A stretch of DNA of 50,648 nucleotides, filler included, from Jimgerdemannia flammicorona (Eukaryota), in assembly GCA_003990765.1 (NCBI GenBank). It is 2 parts of 2 records of this genome, joined end to end, with 100 filler letters (N's around TTAATTAATTAA, not from the genome) between each part and the next. Parts side by side here need not be neighbours in the genome. Positions count along the whole stretch, not along the records: positions 1 to 25,278 come from RBNJ01000856.1; 1 more part is not named here. One strand, given 5' to 3'. Numbering within the stretch: position 1 is the stretch's first letter; each line of letters begins with the position of its first letter. Positions 700-24,000 of this stretch are shown piece by piece. The position numbers and the translations under genes are program-made. A model generated the notes under the pieces. It did no database searches and was not told the DNA's origin. It saw only the letters and a program-made list of their open reading frames with translations.

Positions 700-1431
700 G
701 CCATCATTCATTGTTTGATGCGATGGTCATCATTTTTTTGTCAATAAGAGCAATCAATTTGGTAATATGGCAGAGTGTTTTCTGGCAATCAAATACTAGT
801 TCTGATGCATCAACTCTCTTCCCGAAAATGTATTCTGGGGGGCTCTGAACCCTTCTATATTTATCACATGTGATATGTGATGTTTCAGAATCACCCAAAA
901 AGTACAGCCAAAATGACAGATTGTTGTTGGTGTTAATTTGTTATTGTATACCAACAAAGTCATGCTCTAGGCAGCATTTTTCACTGGTGATACGGTACCT
1001 GGCGACAGCAAACACCTCGAGATTGGCTATGCAGTACAGACACTACCGGACTCGGATATACATTGATGGGTCACGTTTGTATAGCTGCACTGCAACCCGA
1101 ACGTGTAGATAATCTTCATGGCAGCTGCGACTGCTTCGTCACTTGTGCATCACGAAAATGACTGTTCGTGCACCATGCGATCAAGGAAGGCATTCAAACG
1201 CCACTTCATTACCCCCTGCACACTGACCTTTGTTTGTATAATGACCACCCTCAATGCCTGATAGAGTCCTGGGTCAGAGTCTTGATCAAAGCCATGCTGT
1301 ATGCATAGACGTCTAGTTGCCTCGGAGTGAAATGTGAGCGAAATATCCATGCAGTAAAGCAGATCTATATATTCAAAATCATGGATGATGAGGGCACAGA
1401 TTTCAGCTGAGAGGCACACTGAGGTTTGCAT
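700..1431 (-). pseudogene. F-box-like domain protein relic
   Basis: ORF 1150-1431 begins LSAEICALIIHDFEYIDLLYCMDISLTFHSEA, matching the F-box pattern (LP.EI...I...L...DL..C..VS..F...A). The frame continues past a TGA stop; the 3' end is approximate. Confidence 0.5.
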
Positions 1432-1772
1432 GGTGGTGTTAGTGTTGATTCTGGCATATCTACACCTGCTATTTATTGTAAACCATGGTCAGCTTAGGGA
1501 CTGTTAATGCTATGATATAACTATATAGAGATGTACCACTCAGTACCATGTAGTATAGACACAAATGCAAGGCATTCACCATATGCCTTAATAGTAACTT
1601 TGAACTTCCCAATATGTATCGTATGTAAATGATGGTACTTCTAAAGAAGGATAAAATGTCACAGCATCAGTCTTATTTTAACATAGTCAACAGCTTTGTA
1701 GAATAGTATTTACAATAATGTCTCAGTCAGGAAATATATTATACCTTAGGCTTCAGACCAATATGCTAAACT

Positions 1773-1818
1773 GTGACATCAACTACCCACTCTGATAGAT
1801 GTGGGTAGTTGATGTCAC
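1773..1818. repeat. Perfect 18-bp inverted repeat with 10-nt loop
   Basis: GTGACATCAACTACCCAC (1773-1790) / GTGGGTAGTTGATGTCAC (1801-1818). Confidence 0.9.
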
Positions 1819-2102
1819 CTTGAACAATTTGTATTTATAGTCAATATGTTAACAATAGCAATACCTCAGCAGCCATTAGGTATACAAGACAGTCAATACA
1901 CATACTGTTTATATAGTAATATCCATAGTATTTATCTCTGTATGTAAAATTTGTAGGATTTTGATTTTCAAATTTTACCTGGTACTACTCTCAATTGAAC
2001 AAAAGTAATCATTGAATATAGTTCATATTGTATCAATCCTCTCAATAAATGTATGATATATAACCAGTTTTGTGACCAAGTCAAAATAGTGATATCATTG
2101 TC

Positions 2103-2159
2103 GGGAAAAGTGCATTCACATGGATGGAATAATCTCATCCACATGAATGCACTTTTCCC
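2103..2159. repeat. Dispersed ~57-bp palindrome, copy 1
   Basis: GGGAAAAGTGCATTCACATGGATGG-AATAAT-CTCATCCACATGAATGCACTTTTCCC. Confidence 0.9.
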
Positions 2160-2477
2160 AATGATAACATGAATGATACACTTTATAATTACTCAGTATG
2201 TCATTATACTATATAGATTATTTTGTATATAAGGTAGTTCTTGTCCACCCACATCTGAGCTATCATCAACTTCTATAGCATAAATTAACTCTGGTGATAA
2301 GGTGTATTTTACTATAGAACTACCAAACTTGCAAAATTCAGATTGTGATAAATACTATATATATATTGCAACTTAAAAAAATAAATTCTATTTTGTTTTA
2401 CTGACTAATTGTTGTATCAATAGTGACCATATCAGAAACTGGGTTTGACTGGATACATCTACACATAATAACTAAAA

Positions 2478-2880
2478 ATGTCAAAATACCATAGACTCTG
2501 GGTTACATATCTCCACCCCATAGGAATCCTATATAGTGAGTGCATCCATATTTTTAAGAATAGGATCCATCTTCATTACAGTGAAACTATTTCATTCCCT
2601 ACTTCTGTTCTGTATAGATTAGTGTCAAAAATGTTGAATGATTTGAATGAATGGATATTGGAAAGAATAGAACTGTTTGGACACAGACACCCTGTCATCT
2701 CAGGAGATACTGTAAAAATTGTGCCCACCTACAACAAATAGGATATTATTGCACACAGTGATGATGACTGTTATATGTTCACATCTAAGGAAGATGATAA
2801 CAAGTGGTGGTATATCTCAATAATAAATGAATAGAGTTTGGATCTTAAATAAATTTGTATTATCAAGAGATGTTATAAAT
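2478..2880 (+). pseudogene. Decayed ORF of unknown function
   Basis: 87-aa ORF continues in frame past TAG stops to ~2880. An intron-acceptor-like sequence (ctgactaat...tag) lies at ~2400-2423. Followed by a hairpin at 2900-2942. Confidence 0.3.
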
Positions 2881-2899
2881 GAACAAATAAATATTCATC

Positions 2900-2942
2900 A
2901 TTTGCAGATATGTATATTAGTATATTTTATACATCTGCAAAT
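2900..2942. terminator. Intergenic hairpin between convergent gene ends (possible 3'-end signal)
   Basis: ATTTGCAGATATGTATA ... TATACATCTGCAAAT with a 2-nt bulge. The function is inferred only. Confidence 0.3.
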
Positions 2943-3239
2943 TTATTATATATAAAATAATAGAGGGAAGACTGGTCTTAGTCGTAAATGATCAGGAGAT
3001 TCTTGTGAATAGAATGTAACAACAATATAGGTATCAGATAATCACTACCATCCTCTCATACTTTTAATATAATAGTACAAATATATTATCCTCAGGCTGT
3101 GAAGTTTAAACCCATAGTATGGTTACAACTATTTAGAAGAAGTAGTTGTCCAGAAATCTCTGAGCAAAGACTGGCCACTACTATGCATGTAGTCACTTGT
3201 GACTATTATCAGTAATGATGATGATTATTATTATTAATG

Positions 3240-6200
3240 AATGAAATATAGGCAAATTTGCAAAATTCTGCACACTTATATATTTCACAATATATTCATT
3301 CTTCGCCACCAAACATAGGTAAGAATGTCATCAGCAGTAGTCATATCAAACTCTGGAAGTAGTAATCCTGATCTATCAGTAGATGATCCTTAAGCATACT
3401 CTGGAGTAGTATAGCTCTATTGCTTATATATTTTACTGTTGGATATTAGTATACACATATATATATATATATTCATACATATATATATCATACTAATATA
3501 TTTCACACATCTCCAGCTTTGACTGTAATCACATATGTGATGCAATCACTATATTCGGGCGCATTGACTAACCTACTCCTGATGGTAGCAGCAATGTGTG
3601 GCTGCTGCTGCTGATGGATATCTGCTTGTGGTGGAGATTTGATTTTTGAACTCATAGCCTTCATGATGCTCTGGTGCAGACTTGTGTTATTTGTTGGACA
3701 TAGTGTATGTTGGGCTGGGACTGGTGACACCAGAGATGCATTCCACTATTTTGTAATAGCAAAGACAATAGGATCAAGTTTGCCTTGCAATAACTTACAG
3801 ATCTTGTCCTTGATGTGTATCATCATTGTATTGAACCCTCCTTATAACTCAGCAAATAGAATCTCAAGACACTGTTCAACAGTCATAGCAATATACTCAT
3901 ATGTGTCATACTTTACAGTCTGGATACTCTTGATGACCAGACTGTTATTGACTCCTGTCAGCCCTGCATAGTACTTCTTGCTAACAAGCAGAAATGGCAT
4001 GAATACTTACTTGAAGTTCAATGTCTTGCAGTGACCAGGTATGTTGGACAGCAATCCTGCAGTGCATTTGCTGAGTTCAATTGCATCTGCAACTAATATT
4101 GGTCCAAAACTAACCATCACAGAGTCTGTATTACCATACACTATCTGGGCATTGTATTTCTTGCCTTTTGCAGTAGTAAAAGTAGATTCAATCATCAATT
4201 TTGTCTATTCAATCATGCCCTGACCACTTGCTGTAACACTAGTGGTGACTGTAAGACTTACAAGCTTTCCACCAGCAATGCCTATTAGTCTGTAGAGTGA
4301 GTTTGCACAGAGCTTCATTATCTGCTGATATATATCTAGAATTATGTATTTCAGAGGGTTGCCTTCATCTTTGAGCTCTTTCTTAACTATATTCCTGTAG
4401 TCAAGTAGTGTCACAAGAATCTGTGGCATGACACCCCTGTATCATAATGTGGTTACAAAGTAATGGTCAGTTGTAGCATCAGCTTCATTACCTCTGATCA
4501 TAATGTAGTCTACATTCTTGACAAGCTGCAGATGTGCAATTATAGTAGTGTTGACAATTATACTATAGTACAGATTGTTGTCAATCATGATGGTTGGATA
4601 CAGTGAGCTATAGCCAAGTATGCAGATTAGTACTTGGTAGTAGTCAGGGGTTATGTCAAGCACTTTCACACCCTGGTACTGTGGTCCATTAGTGATAATG
4701 CCCTTGATGGGATCAGATATAGGAATGAGATGATTCAGTTTATATGTCTTTCAATAGAATTGCAACATTGCCCAGATCTGCTGGCCATGCTGTAATAAAT
4801 ATATAAATGGTATGCCTGTGACATATGCCAGCTCAATATATTTGGTCATACTCACAAATTGTGCCATTAGTAGTAATGGTAGTGTCATGTCCTGAATGCA
4901 GTACTTAGCTAGTTTGCATCTGTCATTATTACTATCTTTATGCAGCAGTATGATTATGTTATAGTATAGGTCTACCTTTATTTCACCATTAAGATAGTAT
5001 TTGCAGATATTATTGAGTTTGTTTCCACCAGAGAGCTTGTAATCGAGATGGACCATATCATAGATATCATGCAGTGAATAGCTTGCGATGTTGATTTTGT
5101 TTGTATTATTGATATTATATACCTTGGTCTTTATAACTTTCCAATTGATTGTGGTTTCCCTGCTGATAATCTGACTTAGCTGTACAAATGTATACCCAAT
5201 ACCCAATGCATATGCATAGTTAATCAGATATGAGATGTCAAACTTAGCAATCATATAGCCTGTCAGCACATCTGGATCAACCTCATATACTACAAACTGA
5301 TGCCAGTCGAGCAGGAGTGCCTTCTTGGAGGTGTACATCCATATCTTGCAATTGTCAAGCAGTATAGTACACCCTCTCAATATAAATACAATGTGTTTGG
5401 ATGGGTCTGCCATACCCAACACAGCCACAGTACAGCCAATCTGTATGATGGGATTATGTTCAGACTTCAGAAAGATATTCTTGCAACTGCGACACTCAAT
5501 ATTGAAGCTCAGTACCCACAAGGATGTAATGTATGAACCCATATTGCAGAAGTTGTAGGATATGCTCTGGATTGCATTGATGTCTATTTCAATCTCATAC
5601 CAACAGTATGATGTCTTTGAGATATACAGCATGTAATTTCCAGTGGAAATTTGCACCCATCTGGCCCCAGTTATCATGTGGTCGACCATAAATTGCAGAT
5701 CTGGACTCATATTGCTTTTATATGATTTTCCATTATGTACAATGATGCAACTGGGTGGACCAAAGACTGTTTGATTCTGTATAAAATTCACCAGTCATCA
5801 TCTAGTGGCATCTGTCATAGTGGTAAACCTAATGAATGGTTCCAAGTCTGACCCTGTGTAGCTATATATGTCTCTGCTATCAATAATACTATAGTTGCAT
5901 ATAGATACTTTCACATACTATTGCAGCCATACTACCAACAATAGTAGATTATCCTGTTGGACAGTGTCAGGTGTGCGGATGTAGAAATATAGTCTAAATC
6001 CATGCATCCAATACATAATACTATATTCCTTGATAGTTGTTCCAATTATAATCACAATCTCTTTACTATTGAGAAACTCTATATAAATATCCATTTGCTG
6101 AAACATGAGTTCATTGCTCTCACAGTTTACAATCAGAGCCTGTGGGCACATCCAATGCAGGCAGTGTGATAGCAGTAGTGGTTCTAATGTTTGTTGTGGT

Positions 6201-6277
6201 GGTTGGTTGGAGTTGTGTCATATATGATGTCTGTTTTCACTATTATTAAATTGTTATAGTCACTTATTATTCTCCAT
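3240..6277 (-). pseudogene. Family-B DNA polymerase, Pol-delta-like, heavily decayed
   Basis: Collinear motifs across frames: LMFQQMDI..HGFRLYFY (N-term), YKSN..LQFMVD..ITGARW, ExoI SFNIEC, ExoII GYMIAKFD, ExoIII KYCIQD, region II GYSSLYPTIMIDNNL, region III QQIMKLCANSLY, region I YGNTDSVMV, SKKYYAGL, QPHI..APEYSDCITYVI, IDQDYYFQSL. Catalytic D->N/G changes, stops and frameshifts. Putative ATG at 6277; 3' end approximate. Confidence 0.93.
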
Positions 6278-6382
6278 TTTAACAGAGTTACAATTCTTGT
6301 TATTTAATTGTCTTGGGATATACATATTGGGATGTGGTAAACCATTTTAACAACAATGAGACTAGATATAATAATGTCAACT

Positions 6383-6443
6383 TTGGGAAAAGTACATTCA
6401 CATGGACAGGATTATCCCATCCATATGAATACACTTTCTCCAA
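6383..6443. repeat. Dispersed palindrome, copy 2
   Basis: TTGGGAAAAGTACATTCACATGGACAGG-ATTAT-CCCATCCATATGAATACACTTTCTCCAA, ~105 bp upstream of the PolB start, between divergent genes. Confidence 0.9.
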
Positions 6444-6629
6444 CTATGGCCACAAACACATAATTAATCTAATACCAGTACTGTATAATATAATCCTGAT
6501 ATATATATATATTCAAAGGGTGTTTTATATATTCCAGCTCAATTATGCCACCCCTACAGCAGTTGTTAAATCTACAACACAAGATATTATAACAGTATAT
6601 CAATCACTCCTTTACAAAACTGAGCAAAT

Positions 6630-7810
6630 GCAATGGGGCTGTGTATGCTGAAATAAGGATGATAATCAGACAATAGAGTGGACAGATAATAGCTTTTGTG
6701 CTGTGGAATATTGTAGAGCTGTTTGGTAGTTGCAGATAATATTCTTTTGTATGAGAAATGTGGAAATATGTGGTCGAAATTTTGCAGACCACCTATCCTC
6801 ATATCAACCATTTTGTTGTGACTACATGAATTATGATGGCCAATATCTGGTGACTGAATGGAGATGTAGTCAAAGCTGGTATCATCTTCCAGTATCTTGA
6901 AATGCTGACAAATGATGCCTCTATATCTCCCCTTGTGAGGGTGGAGATGTTTGCAAACTATGGCTGTATGCTTGCTGAACAACCTGGTTACAATGTGGAT
7001 ACCTTGGTCCATCTCCAGAATGCCCTGATGTTGCTGGACAGCAATACATACCATGTACACCATCTGCTGATTCTGTGCATCACAATCTGGCTTGCTATAA
7101 TATATACATAACAAAGAAAGAATGACAATATAGAGTGCCTTCTGATATAGTCTATGTGGGACAAACTGTCCAACCAAGAACCATATGCTAACACATTAGT
7201 AGATCTGTGTGTATTCTACTACCACACAGATCACCTTGCAAAATGTGAAGAATATAGGTAACAGGCACTGGCACAAGTGTGTGAAAAACCTAGTATATAT
7301 ATACAGATCAGCATTACACTTGCAATATACTAGACTGTGTTACAGATTGCCCAGGACTGCAACCCATATATGATCAATACTATGGACAGTGTTTTATGTT
7401 TACACAACAATATACATCAGCCAGTACTTCAGTTTTATATCTGGCTAGTGTCGACATTGTGGATAGTGGCCAATGCAACCTTTACCAAGAAACTGTGAGT
7501 CATGAATATACTCTACACAGTGCTTGCTAACTGCAATATCCAACAATCAATCCAGCAGATTGGTGAGCTGCTGGAACTGTTACTATCAGATTTGCTGAAC
7601 AATAGCATAAATACTAACAGTGCAAATATGGCATCCAGTTGAAATGGCTTGTAAATCACTATTACTATCTCAAGAATACTGAGACTGCAGACTGCCACAA
7701 TATACAACTGATTGATCTATTGAAAGTGCAAAATTCAAATCATTGTTCTGTAAGGAGATGCTCACTGAACTCAAAGTAGATTTAATGCAACTGCTTGTGA
7801 ATTATATCTA
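6630..7810 (+). pseudogene. TPR-like helical repeat protein relic
   Basis: Reading through stops gives repeated units such as LQTTYPHINHFVVTT(*)IMMANIW(*)LNGDVVKA and LCITIWLAIIYT(*)QRKNDNIECLL, reminiscent of kinesin-light-chain-type TPRs. Boundaries approximate. Confidence 0.3.
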
Positions 7811-8065
7811 TGATATATAAACTATATTACAACATATTTTAAGCCAAACAACTATGTTTTATTTATAAATATATATAAGTTGTAGATATAATATATAATT
7901 TGAATAAACTTATACCACTATATTAAGAATAGTTTAGCTGGCTAAATATGATATCAATTACAACATACTCTTGCAATGATACCATATATGCTATTTAATA
8001 TTACATCTATATTACCAATTTCAAATATAATTGATTATATTACTCAAAAGTGCTAATTATATAGT

Positions 8066-8129
8066 GTTAGAGAAAGTGCATTCACATGGATGGAATAATT
8101 CCATCCACGTAAATGTACTTTCCCTGATA
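8066..8129. repeat. Dispersed palindrome, copy 3
   Basis: TAGAGAAAGTGCATTCACATGGATGG-AATAATT-CCATCCACGTAAATGTACTTTCCCTGA. Confidence 0.9.
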
Positions 8130-8336
8130 CTGATGTCATACAAATTATTTATTACTCAGATTCAACTCACTAATTCTACAATATCAAATTCTGCCAAATC
8201 TCAGGTGGTATTATGTGATGCTCTGAGAGATATTTAATTGTATATTAGTGGATTAGTTATCAAATTGTAAAAGCAGGTCTATCTGGTGCTAGTATATTGA
8301 TAATAACTTTATATATTAATAACTAAGTGTGATATT

Positions 8337-8408
8337 ATCATAAGAGAAAGTATATTCATGTGGATGGGATTATCCTGTCCCACATGAATGTACTTTCTCT
8401 AATGATAT
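8337..8408. repeat. Dispersed palindrome, copy 4
   Basis: ATCATAAGAGAAAGTATATTCATGTGGATGGG-ATTAT-CCTGTCCCACATGAATGTACTTTCTCTAATGAT. Confidence 0.9.
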
Positions 8409-8449
8409 CATATGAGTAGTTTGGACCATCATTGTTATAGTATGTCATG

Positions 8450-10270
8450 GTATAAATAGTCAGTCAAATATACATTTTTTGTAATACCAACCAACTACCA
8501 TAGAATACTCTACAAAAACCCTCTTTGATATTGGTGAAGTATACATAATTATAGATAGCATTATATAACAAATTCAAAACCTGAAACCCCCATACACAAA
8601 ACTAAATCTTCCAGAGCCTCTGATGGTATTTTACTTTAAAATCATACTAACAGAAGAATAATTAATCCAGTATGTTTGGTAGATAACATATGTAGTACAT
8701 TATCTTTAAATAATTTAATAACACCTTATCTTCTCTACAGAGGTGTGATTTTAGGAGTGGTTACCAAATGGTGGTTTACAGCCAAATGTTCTATGCTAAA
8801 AATTAGTAATTATCTAGATGTAACCCATTAGAGTGTGAATTTTAATACATTTGATAATAATTTTCCTATTTCTCAATTGGTCAGTTCATGGATGGATTCA
8901 TTGATTTGACTTTAAAACAGGTCATTTAGACTTTGATGGCACTACTTACAACAAGTTTCCAATCAACCTCACTATTGGATTTGGTATGCATTACCAAGAT
9001 TCATACAGCTCTACATTTCTATAGAGCAATATCAACAGAGAGATCTGTGAAATTGTTAAAAATAATAAGCCTTGATATCTTATTTATCTAGTTATATTCT
9101 TCACTAGAAACCATGGTGATATAAAAATTATAGTCCTCAATGTCCCCAGCAATACTACATATATGTAATTTACCAGACTATGTAATTTTGGCCCTCCTAT
9201 TACAGATACAACTAGCCCACACCATATGTAAATTGGATATTTTACCACAACACATGATTATATGATAGCTATCTGTTTCAGCAGCAGTAATGGCTGTATG
9301 TCTATATGGAATATATTAACAAAATCACCCATATTAAAGACCTCTATTACTTGCGAAGAATTTACATTACTGGTTACTACTATATTTGACTCTGATATAG
9401 ACATATATGATGTAATTAGCATAGTGATATCAGATACACCAAACTCGGCAATTTTACTGAGTAGATATCACAACTCTTTGCCACCACAGGATCAATACAT
9501 ATTCATTTTGAAACCAAATATCAATGGCTTAGTTACCAAGCCATCAATTCTTCTTGACAATAGTGATGAGCTGATTACAGGCAATATTGCTATGCTGGAT
9601 AATAGCATACAGGTGATTATTGTCAGTTGGACAACATTTTATATTATAGATCTTAACACACTTATAGTTATCAAATTATCCATCCACAACAATGACGTTG
9701 TCACCCATTTTGGAATTGAGTGTCCTGATATGACCAGATGTAACAGACTGCTGCTTGCATAAGTGGGAAAGGTTGTATTTATTTGATATAGTACTAACAA
9801 CTAGGCAAGGATGATCATAGCTAACAATCACAACAAAAGCAAGATGTTTAGACTGTCAATGGCCATATTCCATAAAATTACCATGAATCTGGACAAAACC
9901 CACATTGCACTCCATAAAGACAGTAAATTAGTAGTATTGTCAACTACTGATTTGCATCTAGTGTTCACTGTGGTAGAATGGATAGAGACTAATATCATGC
10001 TGATGAAAGTACTCTTTATTACCAAAAATAACAAAACATACATCCTGACAATAGATATATACACCCTAGAACAAGTGAGTAACACTGTCTATATCACTAT
10101 ATGAATCTGAGATATAGATGGGGATGATGTGTCTAGTGTTGTCTATAAGTGTAGAATTGATGAAATATTGATAAATAATATCAAGCATGGGAATGTATTC
10201 CTATCTATGTTGGGTAACACTACTAGCATTGTCTTTGTTTATGTGGAAAATGGTGTTGTTGTATAGTATG
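8450..10270 (+). pseudogene. Long decayed ORF, beta-strand-rich, possibly beta-propeller
   Basis: Successive + strand ORF fragments (9262-9762, 9811-10104) include a WD-like segment ICFSSSNGCMSIWNI. Family not confidently assignable. Confidence 0.25.
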
Positions 10271-11289
10271 ATTGTATGTTGTATAGATTCGAGTCAATTC
10301 AGTGACCAACTATGGGCAATATGTAGAGATTGATCATGCTAAACCAAGTAGTCTTCGAGAGCAAATAAATGTCATATTTTTAACAAAAAATATATCCCTT
10401 TTACTATTTTTGAAATTTGCAAACTCTAGTTGCCATTGTAAGAGAGATATTATGATACATAACAGTATCTCAAGTTTGTGTATTAAATGTAATTCACTAG
10501 TTTTGCAATATATGTAGCAAGATAGTTATATCATATATGTAGCCAGTATAATAACTGTAATCCCTACATATATTTTTCTTTATGATGATAGTCAGGGCAC
10601 AAGATCTATACAAATATATACATATATCAACCACCTTCATTTGTCTAAGTTGCCATATCTTATTGTTCTCTGATTATACCTATATCATTAATTAATCTCA
10701 CCAGTGCCTATAACTAGATAGTTGTAATTTTTTGTGCTAGTAGAGCCTATGTGAGTGTATCATAGAATTTGCATATATATATTGGATCAATTCATAATGC
10801 AATGGCCCTGTCAAAAAGCTCACTCATATGTATACTACCACTCTCACTATTCAATTCTATAATCAGTTACACTACAAGCTACATTTGTAGCTCATGCAGA
10901 CCCAGATGGACTGTGATACAGTAGAGTTCAGTAACATCAGTATTCATAATCTTTGGCAGTCACTCAGCATATAAGAAGTGCAGGATATGGTATAATATAT
11001 TGATAAATACATTGTCCAGCAGGATCTACTTGAAATGTACATCACTATAAAACATGGTTCAGAATAGTGGATAATGAGCTGCAAGTATTATACTATACAC
11101 ACTGATGATCTGCCTATTAGCACAGACAACAGATGCATTGTGTAGCACTATATCATTGATTATTGCTACCAGATCATCTTTGAATTAGGTTGTAATTGAT
11201 ATCATTACACAAAGTACATCGTGGTATATTGCAGTTGGGATATGATGAGGCTGTAATATATAAACATCATTTATTATATAATATAATTG

Positions 11290-11745
11290 CTAGACTATAT
11301 TGTCAAATACTGAATGACTTATACAATCATTATCAGAGAATTTCTTGACTGCTCAATAATGATTTCATAGGCATGACACTTATTAACCATCTATTGGTTT
11401 ATTCTTACAGAATTAGTCAAACCCTGCAGGATTATACATATACAGTAATCTGGAAATATCACTTTTAGATTTATGAGATCAGTGATAACTTGCATACCAT
11501 GACATATGAATTTCCAATACTCCTTCTTGTCTAGCAAGATGATAACACCTGGTCTCTTATTCTTACCAGATATTTGCCATCTGAGTTTGTATTTAAACAC
11601 CAGCAGAAAATCATCCAGTCATTGAAACTCCAACAGTTCTATGGCTTGATGATTGCAGAGATGTTCTCTTAATTTTGATTCTATCAATGTATCTATTGGT
11701 TGAAGGATTATCATTGGATCTACTTCAGTAACAATTGTCTATCTC
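11290..11745 (-). pseudogene. ERCC4-domain (EME1/Mms4-like) protein relic, copy A
   Basis: TIVTEVDPMII..LIESKLREHL..YKLRW..GVIILLDKKEYWKFI..ITDLINLKVIFPDYCICIILQGLTNSVRINQ resembles the fungal EME1 ERCC4 region (VLVV..A.EF..LK..FP...IYLIEGL...RKN). Matched by eye. Confidence 0.45.
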
Positions 11746-11842
11746 TATTATATTGTTATTTTGTAGTTTTTTATCTCAGTTTACTATAGTTTATATTTCT
11801 TTACAAGTTGTGACTGTGTTTCAAATTAATGATGATATCTAC

Positions 11843-11905
11843 ATTAGAGAAAGTGCATTCACATGGATGAGATAATCTCATCCATGTGAATGTACTTTCC
11901 CCAAT
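11843..11905. repeat. Dispersed palindrome, copy 5
   Basis: ATTAGAGAAAGTGCATTCACATGGATGAG-ATAAT-CTCATCCATGTGAATGTACTTTCCCCAAT, between the two divergent ERCC4-like genes. Confidence 0.9.
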
Positions 11906-12339
11906 CACATAGTATAGTCACACTAGACATATTTGGAATCTAATATGTGTATAATCAAAGTAATGTTGCCTTATTTATTTTTATATAATATTACTCAATA
12001 TATTATATAGACTAATGGTATATATAAATTCACACTACTCAATCTCCACTATATTCCTATGGTCCAACCTGAGCTTATTAACTCTAATGACTTGGTGTAT
12101 TTAATGGTGAAAGAAATGATATATACATTGTCAACAAATGTGACAATACTGCTATTATTGCAAGCCATAACTGCTATAGCTACATATCTATGTAATACTA
12201 TTTTATAGTAGTATCAAAATCAATTTATCAAATGAATAAACTGTTGAACTGATCATAACTTGTACAAGTTGAATGGCTTGCACCTGGTCAACAAACCTAT
12301 TTTGTCATTATATATATATATCTAGTAATCACTAATACT

Positions 12340-13165
12340 CATTCAACATACAAGATGTTGGAAGATGATGATTTTGAATTTCCATCCCCTGAAGAGGTTT
12401 TAAGAGGGGGTCATTTTTATTCTTGAGTGTCATCAACCATTGTCAGTATTGCTACCACTACCACTGCTGTTGCCTGTACACAGACATCTACTTTATTTTA
12501 CACATCTGCAGTATTGATATTAGAAGCGAAAATATATATATATGTGGATGTGTTTGAATAGCACAAACTTAATGGACTATTGCCATCATTCTACTACATA
12601 CTTTGCTGGGATTAGTGATAACAATGCCACCACATGACAGAAGGGTATTGTTGTCATTTTCTATACAACACATGATAGGCTAACAACTGATATCAATAAT
12701 CTAAAAATGCAATTCCTCAATCAGCAGATCTACCTATTGTTCAAGAGTGTATCTGTAGATATTGACTGCATAAAAATCTCATTGGAGCTATATTGTGATG
12801 ATGTTGTCATATATAAAACTACATCAATGGCAGACACAGCAACCACAGTTATACAACTACTGAAATGTGCTCAAAAGGATTGTTCAAAGATGTTGCCTGA
12901 GGATTATCTGGCCATAGTCTATGTCCCTAAGACATGACTCAGTCAGCATGCATTCCAAGATTTTCTGATGCAGATTCCAGACATATTGTGTGTGACTGCT
13001 GCTGTGCTTGTCACCAAATTTAATGACCTTTATTCACTTTACACATTTGTCCATACTCACAACAATATAACTGTGCAGTAGAGGCTAGTACATGTAGTAG
13101 TTATCCAGGTGAGATTGCATGATAAGACCATGCAGCACATACTTGATATTTTCTGAGCACGATGT
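12340..13165 (+). pseudogene. ERCC4-domain + HhH (EME1/MUS81-like) protein relic, copy B
   Basis: GIVVIFY..DINNLKMQFLNQQIYLLFK..IDCIKISLELYCDDVVIYKTTSMADTATTV resembles the ERCC4 C-terminal half. It is followed, through a TGA, by FQDFLMQIPDILCVTAAVLVTKFNDLYSLY, resembling the HhH motif LQQIPGV....A..I...Y.T...L. Confidence 0.5.
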
Positions 13166-13199
13166 ATATTTAAAGCAACTTAATTACACATATAATAAA

Positions 13200-14310
13200 A
13201 TTTGTTTGCAATGCAGAAATTCGTACCAATCAACTTAGATATGCATTCCCACATGATTCTGTTGCTGATCAATCAGCATCTGCTCGCAATACTGATGTAG
13301 GAGACACATTTGCTGATAACAACAGCTGGGTAATTATATGACAACAGCAGTATATTGGAGACCATTGACAATGTCTGCCTTCATGCCACAGCAATAGTAC
13401 TCATTAGAATCATACTGCAAGGAATTCTCATCGAATTTGTCAATATGTTTCCACCACTGGTGCAGCACTCATCTGAGTGATATGAACTGATTAGACACAT
13501 GCTCAGAGGTTCTGATGCACTTGCAACAATATTGTCCACAAACTCTATAGCATTCCGCAGTCTGGTCAGTCAGAAGGCAGGTATGATGTAAGCATTCAGT
13601 GAGTTTGGCAGATGTACATGTAGATGGGGTCAGATGTTAGAGGATCTAGCATTCACATATATGCAGCTACAGTACTGCTGTGATATTGTGGGTCGCAGCA
13701 TATATCTACAGATCATGCAGCATTATCGGTATTTGCCTGATATATTTGTGATAATGGGATATGATATAGATGGGATGATGTATCCTCAGGACCAGGATCC
13801 CAACTTCTTTATGTCTATTCTTGTCGATGCTAAGGTCCTATACATACAGGCACCTAACAGGGTGATTCTACCACAGTACCACACACAGCTGCAGGCTGGA
13901 CTGGTAGTCTGTACTGTCTGCAGTATGGCTTTGCTGTTTACTGCCATGGTCTGCAAATATTCATGACCACAGCTGCTCGAGTCCTGTACATATAACAACA
14001 AGTACCACAACAAATTGCCCTGCAATGCCGCATTTCCCGAGATTGCACGCGGTTATATATGGTTGGCCTGTGCAAACAACAAAGTACTACAATGTGTTAT
14101 GCAGAATTGTGACACAGATCTTGGCGTGGTAGCATACCTTACATTCAACACAATCTTTGAACAGATCTTTCATGGCAATCTAGTTGTGGTGCATACTGAC
14201 GTATGGTGTGTGGGTGAGTCTGCTCTACAACTGCAGCCCTTGACACCACTTGTGCTTAGATGTGTTCTAGTAAAATTATTTGGAGTTGAGTGTTTGACAA
14301 TTCAGTGAGA
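13200..14310 (+). pseudogene. PD-(D/E)xK endonuclease of phage/giant-virus type, with a putative 43-nt intron (13581-13623)
   Basis: Removing GTATGA...TAG joins IVHKLYSIPQSGQSEG-RWGQMLEDLAFTY...YRYLPDIFV...ILVDAK, matching the pattern T.Y.G..FRS.LEARW..F...L...Y...YLPDF...(I/V)E.K. Boundaries approximate. Confidence 0.5.
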
Positions 14311-14596
14311 CTCTCAGTTTCTTTCAAAGCTGATCACAGGAGTGAAAAATGTGTGGCATGCTGTACCCATAAAAAAGGGTCTTATTGCAGAAAAGATCAT
14401 TTTATAAAATTATATATTTTATAACTCTAGTCTATGGGTATATTGCCAATAGGCTTTCGAGGATAGTTTTTTCAAATATTCATATAACTCAACAACTCTG
14501 TTACTTTCTATATTGATTGTGGTCCAACACAAGTAATGTGTAAAATTGTTGTGGAAAATTCACAGGTTTCCACAGAGAGATTTAAAACATTATTAT

Positions 14597-15598
14597 TTAT
14601 TTATTATTGTATATCACTAGTAGGCTTTCAAGTGTGTTTTCTTCCAATACTCGTGCGACAACACTACTAGCTGCGTCAACATCCCCCCCACTCACACAAT
14701 CCTTTACTGTCGACCACACATCATCCCCACTATATGCATCATGTATTATACCTACAACATGCTCGTTCATTCGTAGGTACGTCACCAGTTCACCAAATAC
14801 TTGATTCGTCATTTTTGACATACTTGTGGCTCCCCACAATGACGCCGCAACAGATACACTGTTGAAGAGCTTAGCCAAGACAAGATACCGCCACCCACAC
14901 CTAATCCGCTTACCAAGCTTGCCGGCATTGTGTTGGCTGTACTGCGCGTTGAGCTGATTGGACACCGCCCTCCATGACACCAATTGATAATTATTCAGAT
15001 CAGTCGAATCTAGTAGATATTTGACACAAATGCTCATACTGCAAAGACGTAACCCTATACTACCCAAAATACATCTGAACGCTAACTGATTATACCAATC
15101 TACCACATTGTCCAAGATAGACCTCGCAGATTGCACTATGGGCAATTTGATAAACTTCTCTGACCGCACCCTGGCGGCCAATGATTCTGGATCTATACAC
15201 CTGGCGTGTTGATATATAGCGTGCAAAATTTGCGGCATCTGCAAATATTCACTCTCCTCTGCTGCTGTCTCACTCTCTGTCTCAGATTCTGAAGATGTCA
15301 CATTCAAATTGCGACTGATTTGTCTCTGGCCGTCTTTAACACGTCGTCGTCCGTGGCATTCTCTGGTTGGGTCATCTGCTCTTTTGGTAGCATGAGTTGC
15401 AGTTTCTCTCCGGGGTCTGAGCCCTTGTCTGGATGTTGCTATGACTTGTGAAACCTCATGGAGCGGAGATCCACCGGCTGGGGGAACCTCGTGTAGCGGT
15501 GATCCACCGGCTGGGGGAACCTCGTGTAGCGGTGATCTACCGGCTGGGGGAACCTCGTGTAGCGGTGATCCACCGGCTGGGGGAACCTCATGTAGCCC
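14597..15598 (-). CDS. Intact open frame of unknown function (334 codons; first in-frame ATG ~15238) with N-terminal LHEVPPAGGSP repeats
   Basis: Manual translation shows the 236-aa ORF frame stays open upstream through the 33-bp repeats to a TAA at 15599-15601. CpGs are retained. Confidence 0.5.
   Translation of the reverse strand, partial: GLHEVPPAGGSPLHEVPPAGRSPLHEVPPAGGSPLHEVPPAGGSPLHEVSQVIATSRQGLRPRRETATHATKRADDPTRECHGRRRVKDGQRQISRNLNVTSSESETESETAAEESEYLQMPQILHAIYQHARCIDPESLAARVRSEKFIKLPIVQSARSILDNVVDWYNQLAFRCILGSIGLRLCSMSICVKYLLDSTDLNNYQLVSWRAVSNQLNAQYSQHNAGKLGKRIRCGWRYLVLAKLFNSVSVAASLWGATSMSKMTNQVFGELVTYLRMNEHVVGIIHDAYSGDDVWSTVKDCVSGGDVDAASSVVARVLEENTLESLLVIYNNK
15450..15596. repeat. 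33-bp tandem repeat, ~4.5 copies
   Basis: Unit GGAACCTCGTGTAGCGGTGATCCACCGGCTGGG, contiguous with no spacers. Confidence 0.95.
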
Positions 15599-15605: not shown

Positions 15606-17386
15606 TCAAAATCTACAACTCCCTACCCATCTAGGACACGCCACGACATCTCTCACGTTTTCCAACCCCGTCACGTACGCTATGAATCTCTCGAACCCTA
15701 TTCCGAACCCGCCATGTGGCACGGTTCCGTACCTCCTTAAGTCTAGATACCACGCGTACTCCTCCAAATCCAACCCCGCCTCGCGCATCCGATCCGCCAA
15801 CACCTCAAATCTCTCTTCGCGCATCGACCCGCCCACCAGTTCGCCAATTCCCGGCACAAGCAGGTCCGTGCACGCGACCGTGGCGTGCGGGTTATCGGGC
15901 CCATCGCTTGTATTGGTGCGCATATAGAACGGTTTCAGCCACCCTGGGTAATCTGTTACGAAGACCGGGTGCGCGCAGTGATTTGTGCTAAGGTATCGCT
16001 CGTGCTCGGACTGGAGGGCGGATCCCCATCGCGGTGGGAATGCGAAGTTGGTCTTTGCGGCCTGCTGTGCGCGTTCGAGAACGGCGACGGCCTCAGTGTA
16101 GGTCATGCGGACAAATGGTTTGTCAGCGGTGGAGCGCAGGCGGGCGAGCAGGGTTGGATCTGTAAACTTGTTGAAGAGGGCGAGGTCTGGCCCGCATGTG
16201 TCGAGGATGTGCTGGATGACCGACCGAATTGAGGCCTCGGTCAGATCGAGGAGGTGAGAGAGAGAATCAATGAAAGCGACCTCGGCTTCGAGCATCCAGA
16301 ACTCGGCGAGGTGGCGTGAAGTGTGGGAGGATTCTGCGCGGAAGACGGGGCCGAAAGTGTAGACGCGGGAAAGGGCCGAGGCCAGGATTTCGGCGTGGAG
16401 CTGACCCGAGACGGTGAGGTAGACGGTTCTGCCAAAGAATTCGAAGGTCGCGGGGAGGGATGCTGCGGATGATGATAATACGCTAGGAGCAGAGACCGGG
16501 GTGACTTTAAAGACTTCTCCGCCACCTTCGCAGTCGTGGGATGTGAGGATCGGGGTGTGGACGTTGATGAATTCTTGTTCCTGAAGAAGAGAATTGATGA
16601 AGGAGGAAACATATATACTTCGCAATCCAATACTATTCAACCGGACATAACCCATCCATCAATGAAGGTCTGAAAACGAATCTCAAAACCATACCTCAAA
16701 GAACTTGTGAAATCCTGCCACCGCTGCACTCCTGATCCTCATCACCGCGCTTCCGCTATTAGCTCTTGTGCGTAAATGTGCGTTCTCGCGCAAGAATTCT
16801 ATACCATGATGCTTCTTTTGAAGCGGATATGTCTAAAATTGCATGGTCCCTAGTTAATACATTTCCCAAGACGTGACGAGCCAGGCCAAACACACATTGT
16901 AAAAACGTGAGACATCCTACCTCCCCGTTGCATTTACCCAGCACTGCCACCTCACGTGCTTGCAGTTCGCGAGTCTGTTCCTCCCCAAGGCTCGCCACCA
17001 GAATACCCTCCATTCGCACCGACGTGCCCGTTGTCAATCTGTATTCCAAACGGTCAATTTATGTCCCCGATCGGCAACATCAGATCCCCATGCCATAACC
17101 ACACAAACACAATTCAAACTCACCTCTTAGCCTGCTCCTCATTCAAGATAACTTGTATCCCCGTGACGTTGCTTCCGTCGTTCACGTGCGCGAAGCACAC
17201 TTCCTTCTGCACGCGCACTGTACGCACCCATCCATGGATCGTGACGGGTGAATTGAGCGGCGCATGCTTGAGGACATGGGTGATGGTCTGAGAGGGGAGA
17301 ATCTGGCGGCTAGCGGTGGTATATAGCCGAGAGAAATGTAGAGGTATCGATACGGTTGGAATGACGCGTAGGAATAGGCGTGGCAT
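15606..17386 (-). CDS. SLM5: Asparaginyl-tRNA synthetase, mitochondrial; exons 17386-17124, 17038-16921, 16832-16695, 16580-15606 (~497 aa)
   Basis: Arg/Ser-rich presequence, OB-fold ([12 protein letters not shown]), [23 protein letters not shown], motif 2 [14 protein letters not shown], motif 3 [15 protein letters not shown] introns keep the frame. NARS2 ortholog. Confidence 0.93.
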
Positions 17387-18082
17387 GGTGGAGGTGGGAG
17401 AGGATAATTTCGGGTGGCGTTCGTCTTTGACGATCTTGGTATTTGTTTTTTTTTTTTTTTTTTTTTTTTAATCTTGGTATTTGTTTAATTATATATATAT
17501 CATTGCCACATTTGATGGTGTCGGCCTTCAATTTTCAGCCGTGTATGCCAACTAGACAAATGAATTACACATATCTCGCAAAATATAGGTTGCCATTATG
17601 ATGTTTTGTAGGGTTTAATTTTTCTCAATGAGCTCCTCGCTTCTCGACCAATGCTGGGAAATTTGATATAGACGAAATGATGATGGGAAAATGTAGACAC
17701 ATAAAAGTCTTTGTGAACATGGTCATGAGAGCAGGGGGAAGATAAGGAAAAGAAAACAGTCAACGACATTATGCAACAAACCAGAAAAGTAGTACGAGAG
17801 CAATTATCCTCCTGTATCGTGCGTGACATGGATAAATATACATATCGAGGAAAAGGGGAGGGAGGGAGGGGGGGAAGGTAGGCAAAAACGGAAAATAACA
17901 AACGAGGAAATAAAAAAGGAAAAAAAAAAAGTCGAAGATGAAGAAGAGCCACAAGTAAATTTCCCGACTTCCGTGGAGGGAGCATACGGATGAAAGTGAA
18001 AAATAAATAAGGAGAAATACTAAAATAAACGCAAAAGAGAAACGCATCAGAAACTAAGAACGACCCATGGACCCAATCCAGA

Positions 18083-21000
18083 TTACAACTTGCGCCCTCG
18101 AGACTAATGCATTGAAAGAGCATAAGACATGGAGTCAGGTATCAATACTTGTCAATAAACAAGTACTAAGTGAATGTTCAAAGCACAACGAGAAACACTA
18201 AAAAGGGACCGAATACTTACGGAGTAAGATGACCCGTCCCCGGTCACCACCGATCCCACCGTTCTGTACGACGAGGACGTATTCATCATGCTGTTATTCA
18301 AACCCATCCCAGTCCTCCCGAGGCTGCCCGAGCCCGAGTATCGGCCGATTCCGGAGACGCCCACATCACTGTTGCTATCACCTTGGAGTCTCCGCGAGGA
18401 TGAGGTCGGTACATATAGGCTCGTACTGCCTGAGAGGGTAGTTTTGCTGGATGTCGGGATCAGTAGAGAGGAGTGATATTGCGAGGTCGAGATCGACGAT
18501 GTCGATTTGCTTGAGATGGTCGATTGGTTGTCGTCATCCTTGCGGGCTCGGCCGCTGGAAAGCCATTCGTAGTAGAAAGTATTGGGATCAGCCCACATGT
18601 CATGATTGCCCTCTTTCGCCATTGCTCCAAACGTAATTTAGTGTTCGTTGAACTAGAAAACATACCGAATAACAAAACAAGACTTACATATTCTTCTTGG
18701 AGGTGGCCTTGTCATACCCAATAGGCGTCACGGGAGCCGACGCCGCATTTTTTGAGGGCTTTTGATTGCCTTCCAGGATCCACTCGTGATGCAACCCTCC
18801 CTCCGGCGTCATGCGCTTTTCCGGGTCCCAATCCAAGCATCGTGCAACGAAGTCGACAAAGATTGGGTCGTTGCATTTCAGAACTTGTTGAAGGGTTTTG
18901 GTACCCGGTCGGCGCTTCTTGCCCTTCGAGTTGGGAATGATCCGCGGATTACCATTCGAATCTGTTCAGCGGCGAGAAAATAAACGATGGATACAGGTGA
19001 TTCAATATAGAGATTCCTGAATCTTAAGGTACTGTGGTGTACGATTCACATATTATTTAAATCCTCAAACAGGGCATACCGAAGAACAACTTCTTTCTAG
19101 TACTCTTCTCCACTAGGTAACGTTCGGGAACGCCTTGGACTTCCATGATACAGGCCAGCTGCTCCTGTTCGTTCTCACCGGGGAATAACGGATATCCTGT
19201 GAAATACAAATGCAACCCATAGCAAATGCGTTAGAAGATGTTTCCATTTTTATCTCACATAAGGAGAACGAATAACCGTGTACCTACCGGTATAAAGTTC
19301 CGCGAGAATACAACCTAGACTCCACATGTCAATGGCCATGTTGTAAGTCATGCCTGCAGTTGAAGTTTCGATTAGTACAAAGCTCGTCTTAAGAAAACTT
19401 CTCATCATCCTTGTCCTTGGAGAACTTACCGAGAATAACCTCTGGTGAACGATAGAATCGACTTTGGATATACGTGTAGACTACAAAAGATAACAATTGT
19501 CGATATTTTGAGCCGTCAAAATAAAAAAATAAAATAAAACGAGTCTGTTGCTCTAGTTGATATGAGCGTGATGTTTACCCTTCTCGTTCTCCAAACAACT
19601 GCTTCCGAAATCTATTACTTTTATACCACTCTTCGTTGGGTGTTTTAATAGGACATTCTAAAAATAACAAACGAAGCGATGGACGTTTGGATAAGAACGT
19701 GCTGCATAGCGTGACCTCTATGACCACTAACCCTGTCTTCCACCCTCCATACAACTTAAATGAACAGAGGTCAGTACCATATTAACATACCTCCGGCTTC
19801 AAATCACAATGAACCACGCTATGCGAGTATAGCAGCGAAAGCGAATTCAGGAGCTGAGTCGTGAACCTATGATATCATCAATAACAAGGCAACATGTGAG
19901 TGAGTAAAGCACCTTAATCGTTCAGTATGAGGTAGACACGTAGACCAAATCAACATAAACGAAAGGGACATACCTGCGAATCAATCCCAAGCTGAAGCCT
20001 TGGAAATTGTTGCTCTTGATGAACTCGTATAGGTTGATGCTCAAGCACTCGCAACTGATGCACAAATGGTTGCGGAAGTAGAAGTGGTCGGTCATCCGCA
20101 CATTGTTATGCTTATCCTCAGGGTCCTACGTTTTGGATTGAATATCCATTTCGTTAGTATCACTTCAAGATAGCTCCGGTTGCGAATACGAGTGCCCAAA
20201 ACAAGCAAATTCTTACCCATTTCACAAGGTTCTCTAAAATCTTGACCTCGACCAGGGCCTGGCAATGGAAGCGCTTCTTGTTACGGATGATCTTGATGGC
20301 ACATGTCTGGCCCGTCTTGTGGTCAAAAGCCTTGACAACCTGGCCAAAGGAGCCTTTGCCGAGGGTCTCGATAACCTCGTAGCGGAAGCACAGGTGGTCT
20401 TGCACGATAATGTTGTAGTCACCACGCTCGTCGTCGAAGCCGAAGTTGTTGGCAGACTGCTCCGGGGTGGCCTGCTTTTTCTGGGCATGCTGGCCAACAA
20501 AGTAGATCTGCGGATATTCAAGAATCTCGGCGCGCTCGTACAGGGAGAGGTACGGAGCATAGAGTTTCAGGGCCGCTGTGTTGGTTCAAAACATCAAGGA
20601 AAATAAGTAATCAAGACAAAGGTCGAGTCAAATGTGAAGAATCGGAATAGCCCCAAGCGATAAACAAAACACACAGCCCTACCTTGCGGGCCCATCGCAA
20701 CCCTGATACCCGAATCCTTGTCACGCGACTTTTCCTTGGCTGCATCCTTCTCCTTGGGGACATTCTTCACGTACAAGCTCATCATCTCCTCACCAGTGCT
20801 TGTACTTGCCCCGCTCCTAGACGGTGTACCAGAATACCCTCTCGCAGCATCATCGTCCGCTGCCTCACCAGCATTCACCTTGGTCGACGACCCATTTTCC
20901 TTACCCTTCGCCGGTCGCGTCGACTCGTCCTCCTCAAGGATCTGGTCCTCCACCACCAAGCCTTGTAACCGATCGTGAAGACTCAATGCCTTGTTGGGTG

Positions 21001-24000
21001 CTTCGGGTTTAGACGTGCTGCTCTTGGTGACGGTGACCGGCTTCTGACCGGTGAGGGTGTAGCTCCCATTGCCACCGAGCAGCGGCACCGGACCACTTGA
21101 CATCGTGCCATGAGCCGCAACCGTGTTGACGCCGCTCTTCGGACCAGTGTGGAGCGCCTGGGCGGCCTTCTCCTTGTCCAACTGTTCCTGGATGCTCAAG
21201 CCGGTGGTGGGGGCGATCGAGTGGCGACGCGCTGATGTGCCGATCGTGCGCGACGCAACCGGTGAGGCATTGATCAGTGGAGACAAGTTGGCGCTGCTCA
21301 TCTTGCGGCTCCGCGAGGTCTTGGACGTGTCTATGCTAGACGAGAACGAGAGGTCCTTGTTGGAGCCCGTCGTGATGGTCGACATCGAGGACGTGAGCGA
21401 TGGCTTAGAGGTACTCGAGGGTTTCCGAAGGGCAGATTGGCTGTTCTCCTTGGATGGTTTTGACAATGTAGCGGTCGACGAGTACTCGGAGCCCGACTTG
21501 CTTAGCAGGGAGTTCGTCGACGAGCCTAGCCCGCCACCGCGGATCGTCTTGGGGGTCATGGTGACACTGGAATTAAGGTTAGCCGATGCGGATGGAGCAT
21601 GGCCTGAGGGCCCAACCTTGGGTGAAGGTGGTGGGATTTTGGACCTCTCGCCATTCGTGGAGCTGGTCAAGGTGTTGTACAGCAGCGACTGAGTCTTCTT
21701 CTTTTCGCTCAACGTCGGTGTCACTTCCGTCGTGGGTGTAAGCTCGTCATCGCTATTCGAACTTGTGCCGACGCCATTCCCGTCATCCTTGATGCGTGTC
21801 GAGTATGGGCCGCCGGAAGTCGACAAGGATTTGTTACGGCTGGATCCGATGGTCGGGATTCGTGTTGGCGTGGTCGCAATGGATCGCGAAGGCGACTTGG
21901 CTGTCGACTTGCGTGTACTCGTTTGGGGTAGATAGACATTGAGTGGCTCGACCTTCATGGGTGGAAGTGGTAGAGAAGGTACCGGGGGCGGCGTGGCAAG
22001 GCTTCCAGGAAGAGTCTAGCACGACGTACAAAGGAGCTGTAAGCCAAACCGTACCCCGTCTTACCAACAACAACCCAACAAGGAAACATAATACGTACCT
22101 TTCCCCTCTTCCTGGTCATCGTTACCTTCTTGTTTTGCACCGTCTGAACCGCTGCGGACGTCCCAAATGAAGTCGACGGAGCCGTGGTGGTGGCATGCGA
22201 CCCGATCCTTCTCGTCGTCTCATTCTTCTCGCTCCCACCAGTTGTCGCCGCAACCACGCTCTTCTTCCTCTTGCTCGCGGCCGAGGACGTGGTCGAGATG
22301 CTAGTCCTCGACGATGTCTTCCTCTCGGACCCGGACCGCTCCCCGGTGGCGACATCGCCTGCCAATGACACCTTCTTCTTGCGTCGCTTGCTACTGTCGA
22401 CGGAACTGGTCAGAATCTCGCTCGCCTCGTCCCCACCTGCCTCATCCTCCGTCGCCGTCCGTTCGCTTCCCCTGCGTCGCGTGCTGCTATGCACGTCGTC
22501 GTCCGTCCTGCCCTCCATTTCGTCATCGCCATGCCCGCTATACCCATCCACGTCCTCTTCACCCTGTTTTCCCCGCGAGCTGACGCTACTGTTCCTCGAC
22601 AGGTTCGAGTTCATCAGGTTCTTGATGGTGTTGGCGACCGACGCACTGGCGTTCGAATTCAACGAATGATGTTTGGGCACTGGCGGGACCGGCGGAATGA
22701 ACTCCTCGGGTCCGACTTCCTCCTTGGGTGTCCTTCGACCTGCACTACCAGGTCGCGTGGGGGGTGGCGGAGAATAAGTGCCAGACCGCCGCCTGGTGGA
22801 TGCGCCCGCTTTGTTGATGTAGCCATGGTAGTCAGCGAGACTTGCGCGAGTTGGGGTTGTGGAAGATTTGCGGTGCTCTGCCTTGTGTGACGAAGCAGAC
22901 GATAGATCGTTCGACGAACGATTGGAGCTCGGGATCGGAATGCTTGGCAGCGGCGCGGCCACACCAGTAGCCGACGAGGTGCGCGATCCCGATCTCGGCT
23001 GCGGTAGAAACGATGTCCTCGTGGGGGTACCATCTGGACCGATAGAGCTGGAGAGCCCGGACGACTTTGGGGTCGTCGCCCTCGTGGAGGCTGGCATCGA
23101 CGTTCTCGCGGAGGCCTTTTGCGCCATGGTTCCATTGGTCAGGCCATCGGGCGCCTCGCTATGGTCGAACAGACTCTTCCGCCGCTGCTTCAGTAGGCTC
23201 TGCGTGGCGTCACCGTTGGGCAGCATCGACTGCCCGTTCGACGAGACATGGTTGAATGATGGTGCCGTCTTAGACGTCTTGGGCGTCACGACGCCTGTGG
23301 GCGACGCGGTGTATGAGTAACGCTGCGCGCCCGACTGTCCGCCTGATATGGACGAGGTGTCGAGTGGCAAAGGCGGGGGCGGGGACTTCAACGACCTCTG
23401 CTTTGACCTGCTAGGTGTGCGCAGTTGAGATGATGTCGGTGTGGTGGAGTTGGTTGCGTCACCGTCGTACGGGTGTGTGTACTCGTAATCCGTCACCGGT
23501 GCATAGTACGCGTCGTTCTTCCTCTTCCCCGCACTATTCGCGCTCGTCGCACCGGCACCCTCTCCCCATGCGTTCGGCGGCGTCTTTGGCGGCATCGGCG
23601 GCGGGGTCGTCAGCATCAAGTTCTCCACGTCCATTTGATCGTACTGCAATTCTCCGTACCCCGCATACGGAGCTGGGGCGTCGGGGGACAGGGTAGCGTT
23701 CGATGCCGAATAACCCCGCACCCGACGCGCTACGGCGGAATCGTTATGGCTGTGGTGGCTGGCGCCGATGAGGGGTGGGCTGGACGACGACGGTATAGGC
23801 TGGCCGTAGTAGTCCCTGTCTGAGTGCTGCTGGGATGATGGCTGGTGCTTGCTTGCTCTCCGTGACTGGGATATCGGCTGGAACTGATCCAAAGCTGACC
23901 CGTTGTGATAGTCTGCGTGACCCTGCGACACGCTCAGCCGGTTCCGTGCCTTACTCGACGGCGGTGGGGTGTACCCGATCGCCATGTTGACGCGGTCTGC

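Follow-up and report, generated by a model that had tools for sequence, protein, structure and literature searches.

In the genome of the fungus Jimgerdemannia flammicorona (assembly GCA_003990765.1), a stretch of 50,648 nucleotides (hereafter the window) contains a CpG-stripped island of decayed genes, in which a palindromic site occurs in five copies, each formed by two 30-bp arms around a single A or T (61 bp; Table 1). These palindromes may represent bidirectional enhancer/promoter modules, perhaps also origins, of a nuclear virus-like element, by analogy with the homologous regions (hrs) of baculoviruses; the odds of this reading are about even (probability of roughly 0.5). It is based on the near-identity of the arms, the confinement of the copies to the island within the window, their location in promoter-side gaps, adjacent octamers resembling the cyclic AMP response element (CRE), the presence of an own polymerase and a YqaJ-like exonuclease, and the published make-up of hrs.

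Anatomy, decay and placement of the palindromes

Among 28 pairs considered per copy, 24, 21, 24, 21 and 25 are strict in copies 1–5, respectively, and allowing for transition mismatches yields 28/28 pairs in four copies. Resampling of the island (Markov-2, n = 200) resulted in a mean best score of 18.1 and a maximum of 21, with 24 being reached in 0 of 200 cases. Fold z-scores of the palindromes range from -4 to -11, the arms enclose no internal sequence, and an Rfam search retrieved sub-threshold miRNA hairpin matches only. The initial annotation had placed five near-perfect palindromes of ~57 bp at starts agreeing with the present ones within 0–4 nt; the palindromy stands, but the length had to be corrected to 61 bp, as the arms run three columns past the reconstruction written there. 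Both orientations are present as claimed, the centre bases reading A,T,A,T,A along the island, such that neighbours are always inverted (1 in 16 by chance, noticed post hoc).

In a half-site matrix scan of the window, the arms score 40.7–48.2 and the frameshifted arm 19.9, the next match being at -5.1. No comparable site is present in the ~37 kb outside the island, in agreement with the earlier claim for this window. Since the window consists of two contigs joined by an N linker (25279–25378), this negative covers ~11.7 kb of the same contig (RBNJ01000856.1) and 25.3 kb of the other. The linker itself contains a short palindromic core, and the two halves of the window are not genome neighbours. 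A partial outer half-site with octamer is located in the interior of the BTB gene (11197–11219), matching the end of copy 4 in 21/23 nt.

Between the ten arms, we counted 54 C>T/G>A changes, a single transversion and a single insertion. Variation in 29 of 30 arm columns is restricted to C>T or G>A and all A/T cells (130/130) are invariant, while the flanks and genes are unrelated or diverged. Since the differences are almost wholly C>T/G>A, the arms were nearly identical when the island was silenced. According to context, the 54 transitions comprise 32 in CpG, 14 in CpC and 8 in CpA; the proposed predominance of CpG decay thus applies to 59 % of them, but not to the remainder. Within copies, the two arms differ at 24 positions versus 29.6 expected (P = 0.083); this likeness is not significant and therefore provides no evidence for arm-to-arm repair or for selection for a cruciform as such.

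The E-box (CACGTG) that had been assigned to each arm is intact in none of them; the form CAYRTG is found in 9/10 arms. Likewise, the flank motifs proposed to derive from a CRE exist in decayed forms near the arms, but the intact octamer TGACGTCA is kept in no flank of the five copies. From complementary decays, we infer that both motifs were originally present. With a strict rule, which 0.56 % of 5,378 background windows satisfy, 4/10 arms have a decayed CRE-like octamer 0–3 nt outside them, and with a looser rule (more decay or one other mismatch) it adjoins 7/10 arms. An octamer at 3-nt spacing is present beside every copy, located left, left, right, left and left of copies 1–5, and its side is not tied to the orientation of the centre. 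The longest direct repeats flanking the copies measure 2, 2, 0, 0 and 0 nt, demonstrating the absence of a target-site duplication (TSD) at any copy, counter to the expectation for a miniature inverted-repeat transposable element (MITE).

Gene starts in the island were read by eye and are approximate, and the following placement statistics depend on them. All four promoter-bearing gaps hold a palindrome, in contrast to none of the three convergent gaps. In a length-weighted simulation, the location of all five copies on the promoter side has a p-value of 0.19, the occupation of all four gaps one of 0.047 and both patterns together one of 0.026. The 5' ends of 7/8 genes face a copy at a distance of ~50–670 bp; the exception is the YqaJ-like gene, which starts 13 bp after gene G1. 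Copies 1, 2 and 5 are located between divergent gene pairs, as annotated initially. All copies are intergenic, as claimed, but the claim that each is 5' of a gene needs correction for copy 3, which comes after gene D (at its 3' end) and has a gene start ahead of it only by way of copy 4. Overall, the placement statistic is weak and the support from gene placement modest.

Genes of the island and the polymerase family

Between 2 and 14 kb, the ratio of observed to expected CpG does not exceed 0.22; it is ~1 within the first kilobase as well as beyond 15 kb. The edges of the island carry neither terminal repeats nor a TSD. All recognised island genes are broken. Branch-point or 3' splice-like signals in the polymerase gene (3430–3507, minus strand), before gene B (2345–2424, plus strand) and in gene E (8646–8654, plus strand) suggest short introns and nuclear transcription.

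The best solved-structure match of the window polymerase is yeast Pol delta (E = 6e-112). Its relatives were taken from the best 150 of 7,303 matches in 1.84 billion representatives. The close ones among these are three fragments (71, 79 and 99 % identical), all from J. flammicorona, which is why the element is regarded as multi-copy in this fungus; no intact full-length relative was among these 150. A second tail-less Pol-delta-like lineage was observed in J. flammicorona and in a metagenome contig of the European Nucleotide Archive (P0273, P0126 and P0123), near-intact in P0273 (RUP09780.1) and P0123. Its members (RUP09780.1/RUP49873.1 and the archive protein) share 45–47 % identity with cellular Pol delta and 31–33 % with the window polymerase. 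In an 18-row tree, the three tail-less proteins branch outside the 11 other Pol-delta-type proteins (97/99), and the Pol-delta grouping is separated from 4 family B polymerases (PolBs) of the nucleocytoplasmic large DNA virus (NCLDV) type (99/98), with a long branch and a small sample. A 51-row FastTree places the window polymerase inside the delta radiation. Both trees are without any named mirusvirus PolB. In approximately unbiased (AU) tests, the p-AU was 0.45 for an element clade and 0.084 for a grouping with fungal Pol delta; neither of the two was rejected. In the available text of PMC12198294, viral PolBs are placed around the delta clade.

The assignment of the YqaJ-like gene is based on ESM features (0.95; 20/30 matches in YqaJ-bearing clusters, 30–44 % of the members of which carry YqaJ) and on an own hidden Markov model (HMM) built from 53 viral YqaJ proteins, which detects this gene as the best of 810 window chunks (E = 0.004; next, unrelated, E = 4.4). 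The frame has no Pfam match, pairwise BLASTP against one YqaJ was not significant, hhalign yielded a probability of 1.5 %, and a word search of proteins with this frame gave no match. Five other frames of the island have no assignment; their F-box, TPR and propeller labels are by-eye resemblances only, without support from Pfam, PHROG or NCBIfam. Six window open reading frames had no exact-sequence match in the protein collection, and both single-sequence structure models reached a pLDDT (predicted local distance difference test) of 40. The gene content of the element is virus-like, but since no capsid gene was recognised in the window, the element cannot be classified as a virus.

Table 1 Features of the CpG-stripped island in the J. 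flammicorona window
Feature	Position	Strand	Remarks
CpG-stripped island	900..14500		~13.5 kb; edges gradual, no terminal repeats found
Gene A	823..1431	-	Reading frame; F-box-like start by eye only; no Pfam match
Second, unrelated palindrome	1773..1818		18 perfect pairs (~22 with one gap); ends in CRE-like octamers; ~340 bp upstream of gene A
Palindrome copy 1	2101..2161		Centre A; in the gap between genes A and B (divergent); flanked on either side by CRE-like octamers
Gene B	2478..2812	+	Small protein; intron-like signals upstream
Pol-delta-like family B polymerase	3300..6222	-	Dead; 10 in-frame stops in 3500–6199; no C-terminal cysteine domain; probable short intron near 3' end
Palindrome copy 2	6383..6443		Centre T; between divergent polymerase gene and gene D
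Gene D	6545..7800	+	TPR-like by eye only; no Pfam, PHROG or PDB match
Palindrome copy 3	8067..8127		Centre A; beyond the 3' end of gene D; distance to copy 4, 213 bp
Palindrome copy 4	8341..8402		Centre T; right arm with one extra base; 5' of gene E
Gene E	8447..10265	+	By eye only, F-box-like start and beta-rich body; signal resembling a branch point at 8646
BTB/POZ-domain gene F	10420..11730	-	Dead; Pfam PF00651, E = 1.4e-5
Palindrome copy 5	11844..11904		Centre A; between divergent BTB gene and gene G1
Gene G1	12056..13198	+	Reading frame; start uncertain
YqaJ-like gene (lambda-exonuclease family)	13211..14308	+	Dead; ESM features, own HMM

A 10–12-nt piece of the second palindrome recurs near position 2247. 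Next to the island, an open frame of 333 codons (14597–15598, minus strand) shows no CpG loss and starts with a 33-bp tandem repeat; it had no family or Atlas match and no usable structure match, and may be an edge gene of the element. It is followed by ordinary host genes for a class II tRNA synthetase (15606–17400, minus strand) and an intron-containing protein kinase (18000–25266, minus strand). On the second contig, a CpG-free block (25379–35600) with a flip of GC skew near 32 kb, inverted arms (29404–29627 and 32992–33215) and a decayed reverse transcriptase (33400–35000) probably represents two head-to-head elements of the long interspersed nuclear element (LINE) type. Furthermore, a CpG-free repeat is present there in two copies (26627–27773 and 49497–50648; 75–86 % alike, ~22.9 kb apart), and the region 39500–40900 is very AT-rich (18–30 % GC) with TAA/TTA runs.

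Function of the palindromes

Following the analogy with hrs, the island would be what remains, in a J. flammicorona chromosome, of a large virus-like DNA element of the nucleus that is now dead and decayed by C-to-T changes. A dimeric protein, probably encoded by the element, would recognise the symmetric 61-bp core, and bZIP/bHLH factors of the host would attach to the CRE-like flank and to the E-box-like site of each arm. Given its symmetry and its location between head-to-head genes, the module could switch on the genes on both sides, and may also nucleate replication by the polymerase and exonuclease of the element, as in baculovirus hrs. From the CpG-rich core we infer a sensitivity to host methylation, i.e., a methylation switch. 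Anatomy, conservation, placement, gene content and decay are the established part of this reading. Correspondingly, the element-specific cis-regulatory or origin system that had been proposed is borne out on anatomy (confinement within the window, promoter-side location, conserved arms, CRE-like flanks, absence of a TSD, own polymerase and exonuclease), whereas its enhancer and origin functions follow by analogy only.

Several points weigh against the hr-like function. Protein binding, enhancer activity and origin activity are drawn from the analogy, and the window yielded no candidate for a palindrome-binding protein. No copy retains an intact E-box or CRE motif, the promoter-side location of all five copies taken alone is not significant (p = 0.19) with approximate gene starts, and confinement to such islands is seen within this window only. 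Five origins in 10 kb are dense, and strict symmetry over 61 bp exceeds the needs of an enhancer. In addition, the homogeneity of the arms could stem from recombination or recent spread, and the alternating orientation of the centres is not predicted by an hr-like model.

These alternating centres keep alive a reading that the initial annotation did not weigh, namely that the palindromes are recombination sites, inside which a recombinase or the exonuclease/annealing system of the element crosses over; the A/T centre would provide polarity, and inverted neighbours would flip gene modules rather than delete them (shufflon-like gene exchange). By reasoning rather than computation, the alternation is unchanged by any inversion between opposite sites, and the independence of octamer side and centre orientation is as expected after flank exchange. 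Moreover, the modules between copies 1 and 2 and between copies 4 and 5 represent convergent gene pairs, in which each 5' end would keep a palindrome upon inversion, and the arms are homogeneous. However, Pfam, PHROG and other family scans of window frames recognised no recombinase in the decayed window, the reading leaves the CRE-like flanks and the promoter-side placement unexplained, and only five sites are available. The geometry is also atypical: tyrosine-recombinase sites of the loxP/att type have short inverted arms around an asymmetric core of 6–8 bp, whereas the palindromes have 30-bp arms and a single asymmetric base. We regard crossover at these sites as the main alternative, possible though rather doubtful; it would not be mutually exclusive with an hr-like function. 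Unlikely in our estimate is a repeat that spreads selfishly or passively in the element, resembling the M1/M2 repeats of Pithovirus or a MITE, which would be tolerated in intergenic gaps without a required function. The near-identical copies suggest recent spread, intergenic placement would follow from selection on genes, and M1/M2 are, in the available text of PMC10664404, palindromic intergenic repeats tied to rearrangement. Yet the copies show neither a TSD (flanking direct repeats of 0–2 nt) nor sequence between the arms, all three convergent gaps are avoided, and the octamer varies in side and spacing, which would not be expected of a unit with fixed ends. Sites of the telRL type for the resolution of hairpin telomeres or concatemers, cutting the excised element into hairpin-ended segments, would agree with the strong fold-back potential and with a length near that of the 56-bp telRL of N15 (available text of PMC13236599), but they appear highly improbable: a telRL site is a single inverted repeat around a palindromic core of 6 bp, whereas the palindromes occur in five copies with an odd centre; a protelomerase was not recognised in the window, and five sites in 10 kb would give rise to pieces of 0.2–4.3 kb.

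Combining enhancer and crossover functions, one may speculate that Endogonales harbour nuclear DNA elements or viruses of a so far undescribed, self-replicating class with a tail-less Pol delta and a YqaJ exonuclease, the gene modules of which would be bracketed by perfect 61-bp palindromes. These would function as bidirectional promoters/origins and, at the same time, as polar crossover sites. Owing to the one-base centre and the alternation, modules could then be inverted or swapped while keeping their promoter, in a eukaryotic architecture similar to that of integrons or shufflons. We hold this extended scenario to be improbable.

For land fungi, knowledge of large DNA viruses or self-replicating elements comes almost exclusively from polymerase and marker genes. 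The present island preserves a candidate control sequence of such an element in a mycorrhizal fungus. If the hr-like reading is true, the use of the palindrome-plus-CRE design extends far beyond insect viruses, and it could yield an enhancer/origin part for Mucoromycota vectors; a polar crossover site would represent a novel mechanism by which a eukaryote shuffles gene modules. Under either reading, the palindrome is a specific probe for intact elements.

Comparison with known systems

Palindrome patterns gave 0 matches in viral contigs, metagenome contigs and prokaryote genomes. Two viral loci retrieved with a looser pattern were rejected as chance matches, since their flanks are unlike the repeat. 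Polymerase-based scans yielded 80 loci of the NCLDV type (34–41 % identity) and 80 metagenome loci (25–52 % identity), which were discarded as not being close relatives with context; further scans, including those with a signature pattern, gave no match. The literature as searched, i.e., without most subscription papers and without supplements, contains nothing on this element or repeat. The terms 'Jimgerdemannia' and 'palindrom' are absent from the main texts of PMC13533422 and PMC10640383, the text of 10.1101/2025.04.19.649669 (supplements aside) is without 'Jimgerdemannia', and that of PMC12768974 without 'palindrom'; fungal assemblies were left out in PMC10827195 according to its available text.

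Starship giant transposons, as far as described in the available sources, likewise form large fungal islands with cargo. In the J. flammicorona island, no match to a DUF3435 captain and, in this copy, no terminal repeats were found. To our knowledge, an own replicative polymerase, an exonuclease and dispersed palindromes are not hallmarks of Starships. Early-diverging fungi also carry a B-family polymerase on chromosomal islands in the case of the giant endogenous viral element (GEVE) of Rhizophagus (PMC10640383) and of Mycodnaviridae (PMC13533422). Based on the available parts of these papers, both belong to the Nucleocytoviricota, whereas the island polymerase groups with Pol delta, away from the sampled NCLDV-type PolBs (4 proteins, a small sample), and no marker gene of this phylum was recognised. 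Neither were an HK97-fold capsid, portal or terminase of mirusviruses recognised in the window, several frames of which are without family, and the trees lack a named PolB of this group. The M1/M2 repeats of Pithovirus, in the available text of PMC10664404, are intergenic palindromic repeats of a virus-like genome linked to rearrangement as well, but differ by their length (~140 nt), an internal spacer, a putative TA TSD and hundreds of clustered copies, as compared to five spaced copies here with neither spacer nor TSD.

The closest parallels are provided by baculovirus hrs, described here from the available parts of the cited papers. The fungal palindromes are likened to hrs in function, but are not hrs by descent: neither an IE1 homologue nor baculovirus core genes were recognised in the window. 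Several related palindromes are dispersed mostly between genes in both cases, and the CRE-like and E-box motifs in or beside them are found here in decayed forms only (CAYRTG in 9/10 arms, octamer at 4–7/10). Granulovirus hrs consist of 1–3 palindromes of 49–83 bp (PMC4966970). Those of PiGV and CpGV resemble the fungal sites in being dispersed palindromes of similar size, single or in small groups, with CRE-half-like repeats at their ends, in a large DNA genome with an own polymerase, and some granulovirus hrs are origins (PMC4966970). They differ from the fungal sites with respect to the host, the originally near-perfect arms with one asymmetric base, the delta-like polymerase and the lack of any recognised baculovirus gene; in addition, some PiGV hrs are located inside genes (PMC4966970), whereas all five fungal palindromes are intergenic and on the promoter side. 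The hrs of the alphabaculoviruses AcMNPV and BmNPV are organised as tandem units of 70–72 bp with an EcoRI-centred palindrome of 28–30 bp bound by IE1 (PMC13513840; PMC6669502), in contrast to the single 61-bp palindromes with A/T centre and no EcoRI core described here. Yet the BmNPV hrs, which function as enhancers and origins, combine dispersed palindromes with E-box (CANNTG) and CRE-like TGA(TG/CA)TCA motifs (PMC13513840; PMC6669502), and it is this combination of enhancer and origin, together with a dimeric transactivator, that is proposed for the palindromes of J. flammicorona.

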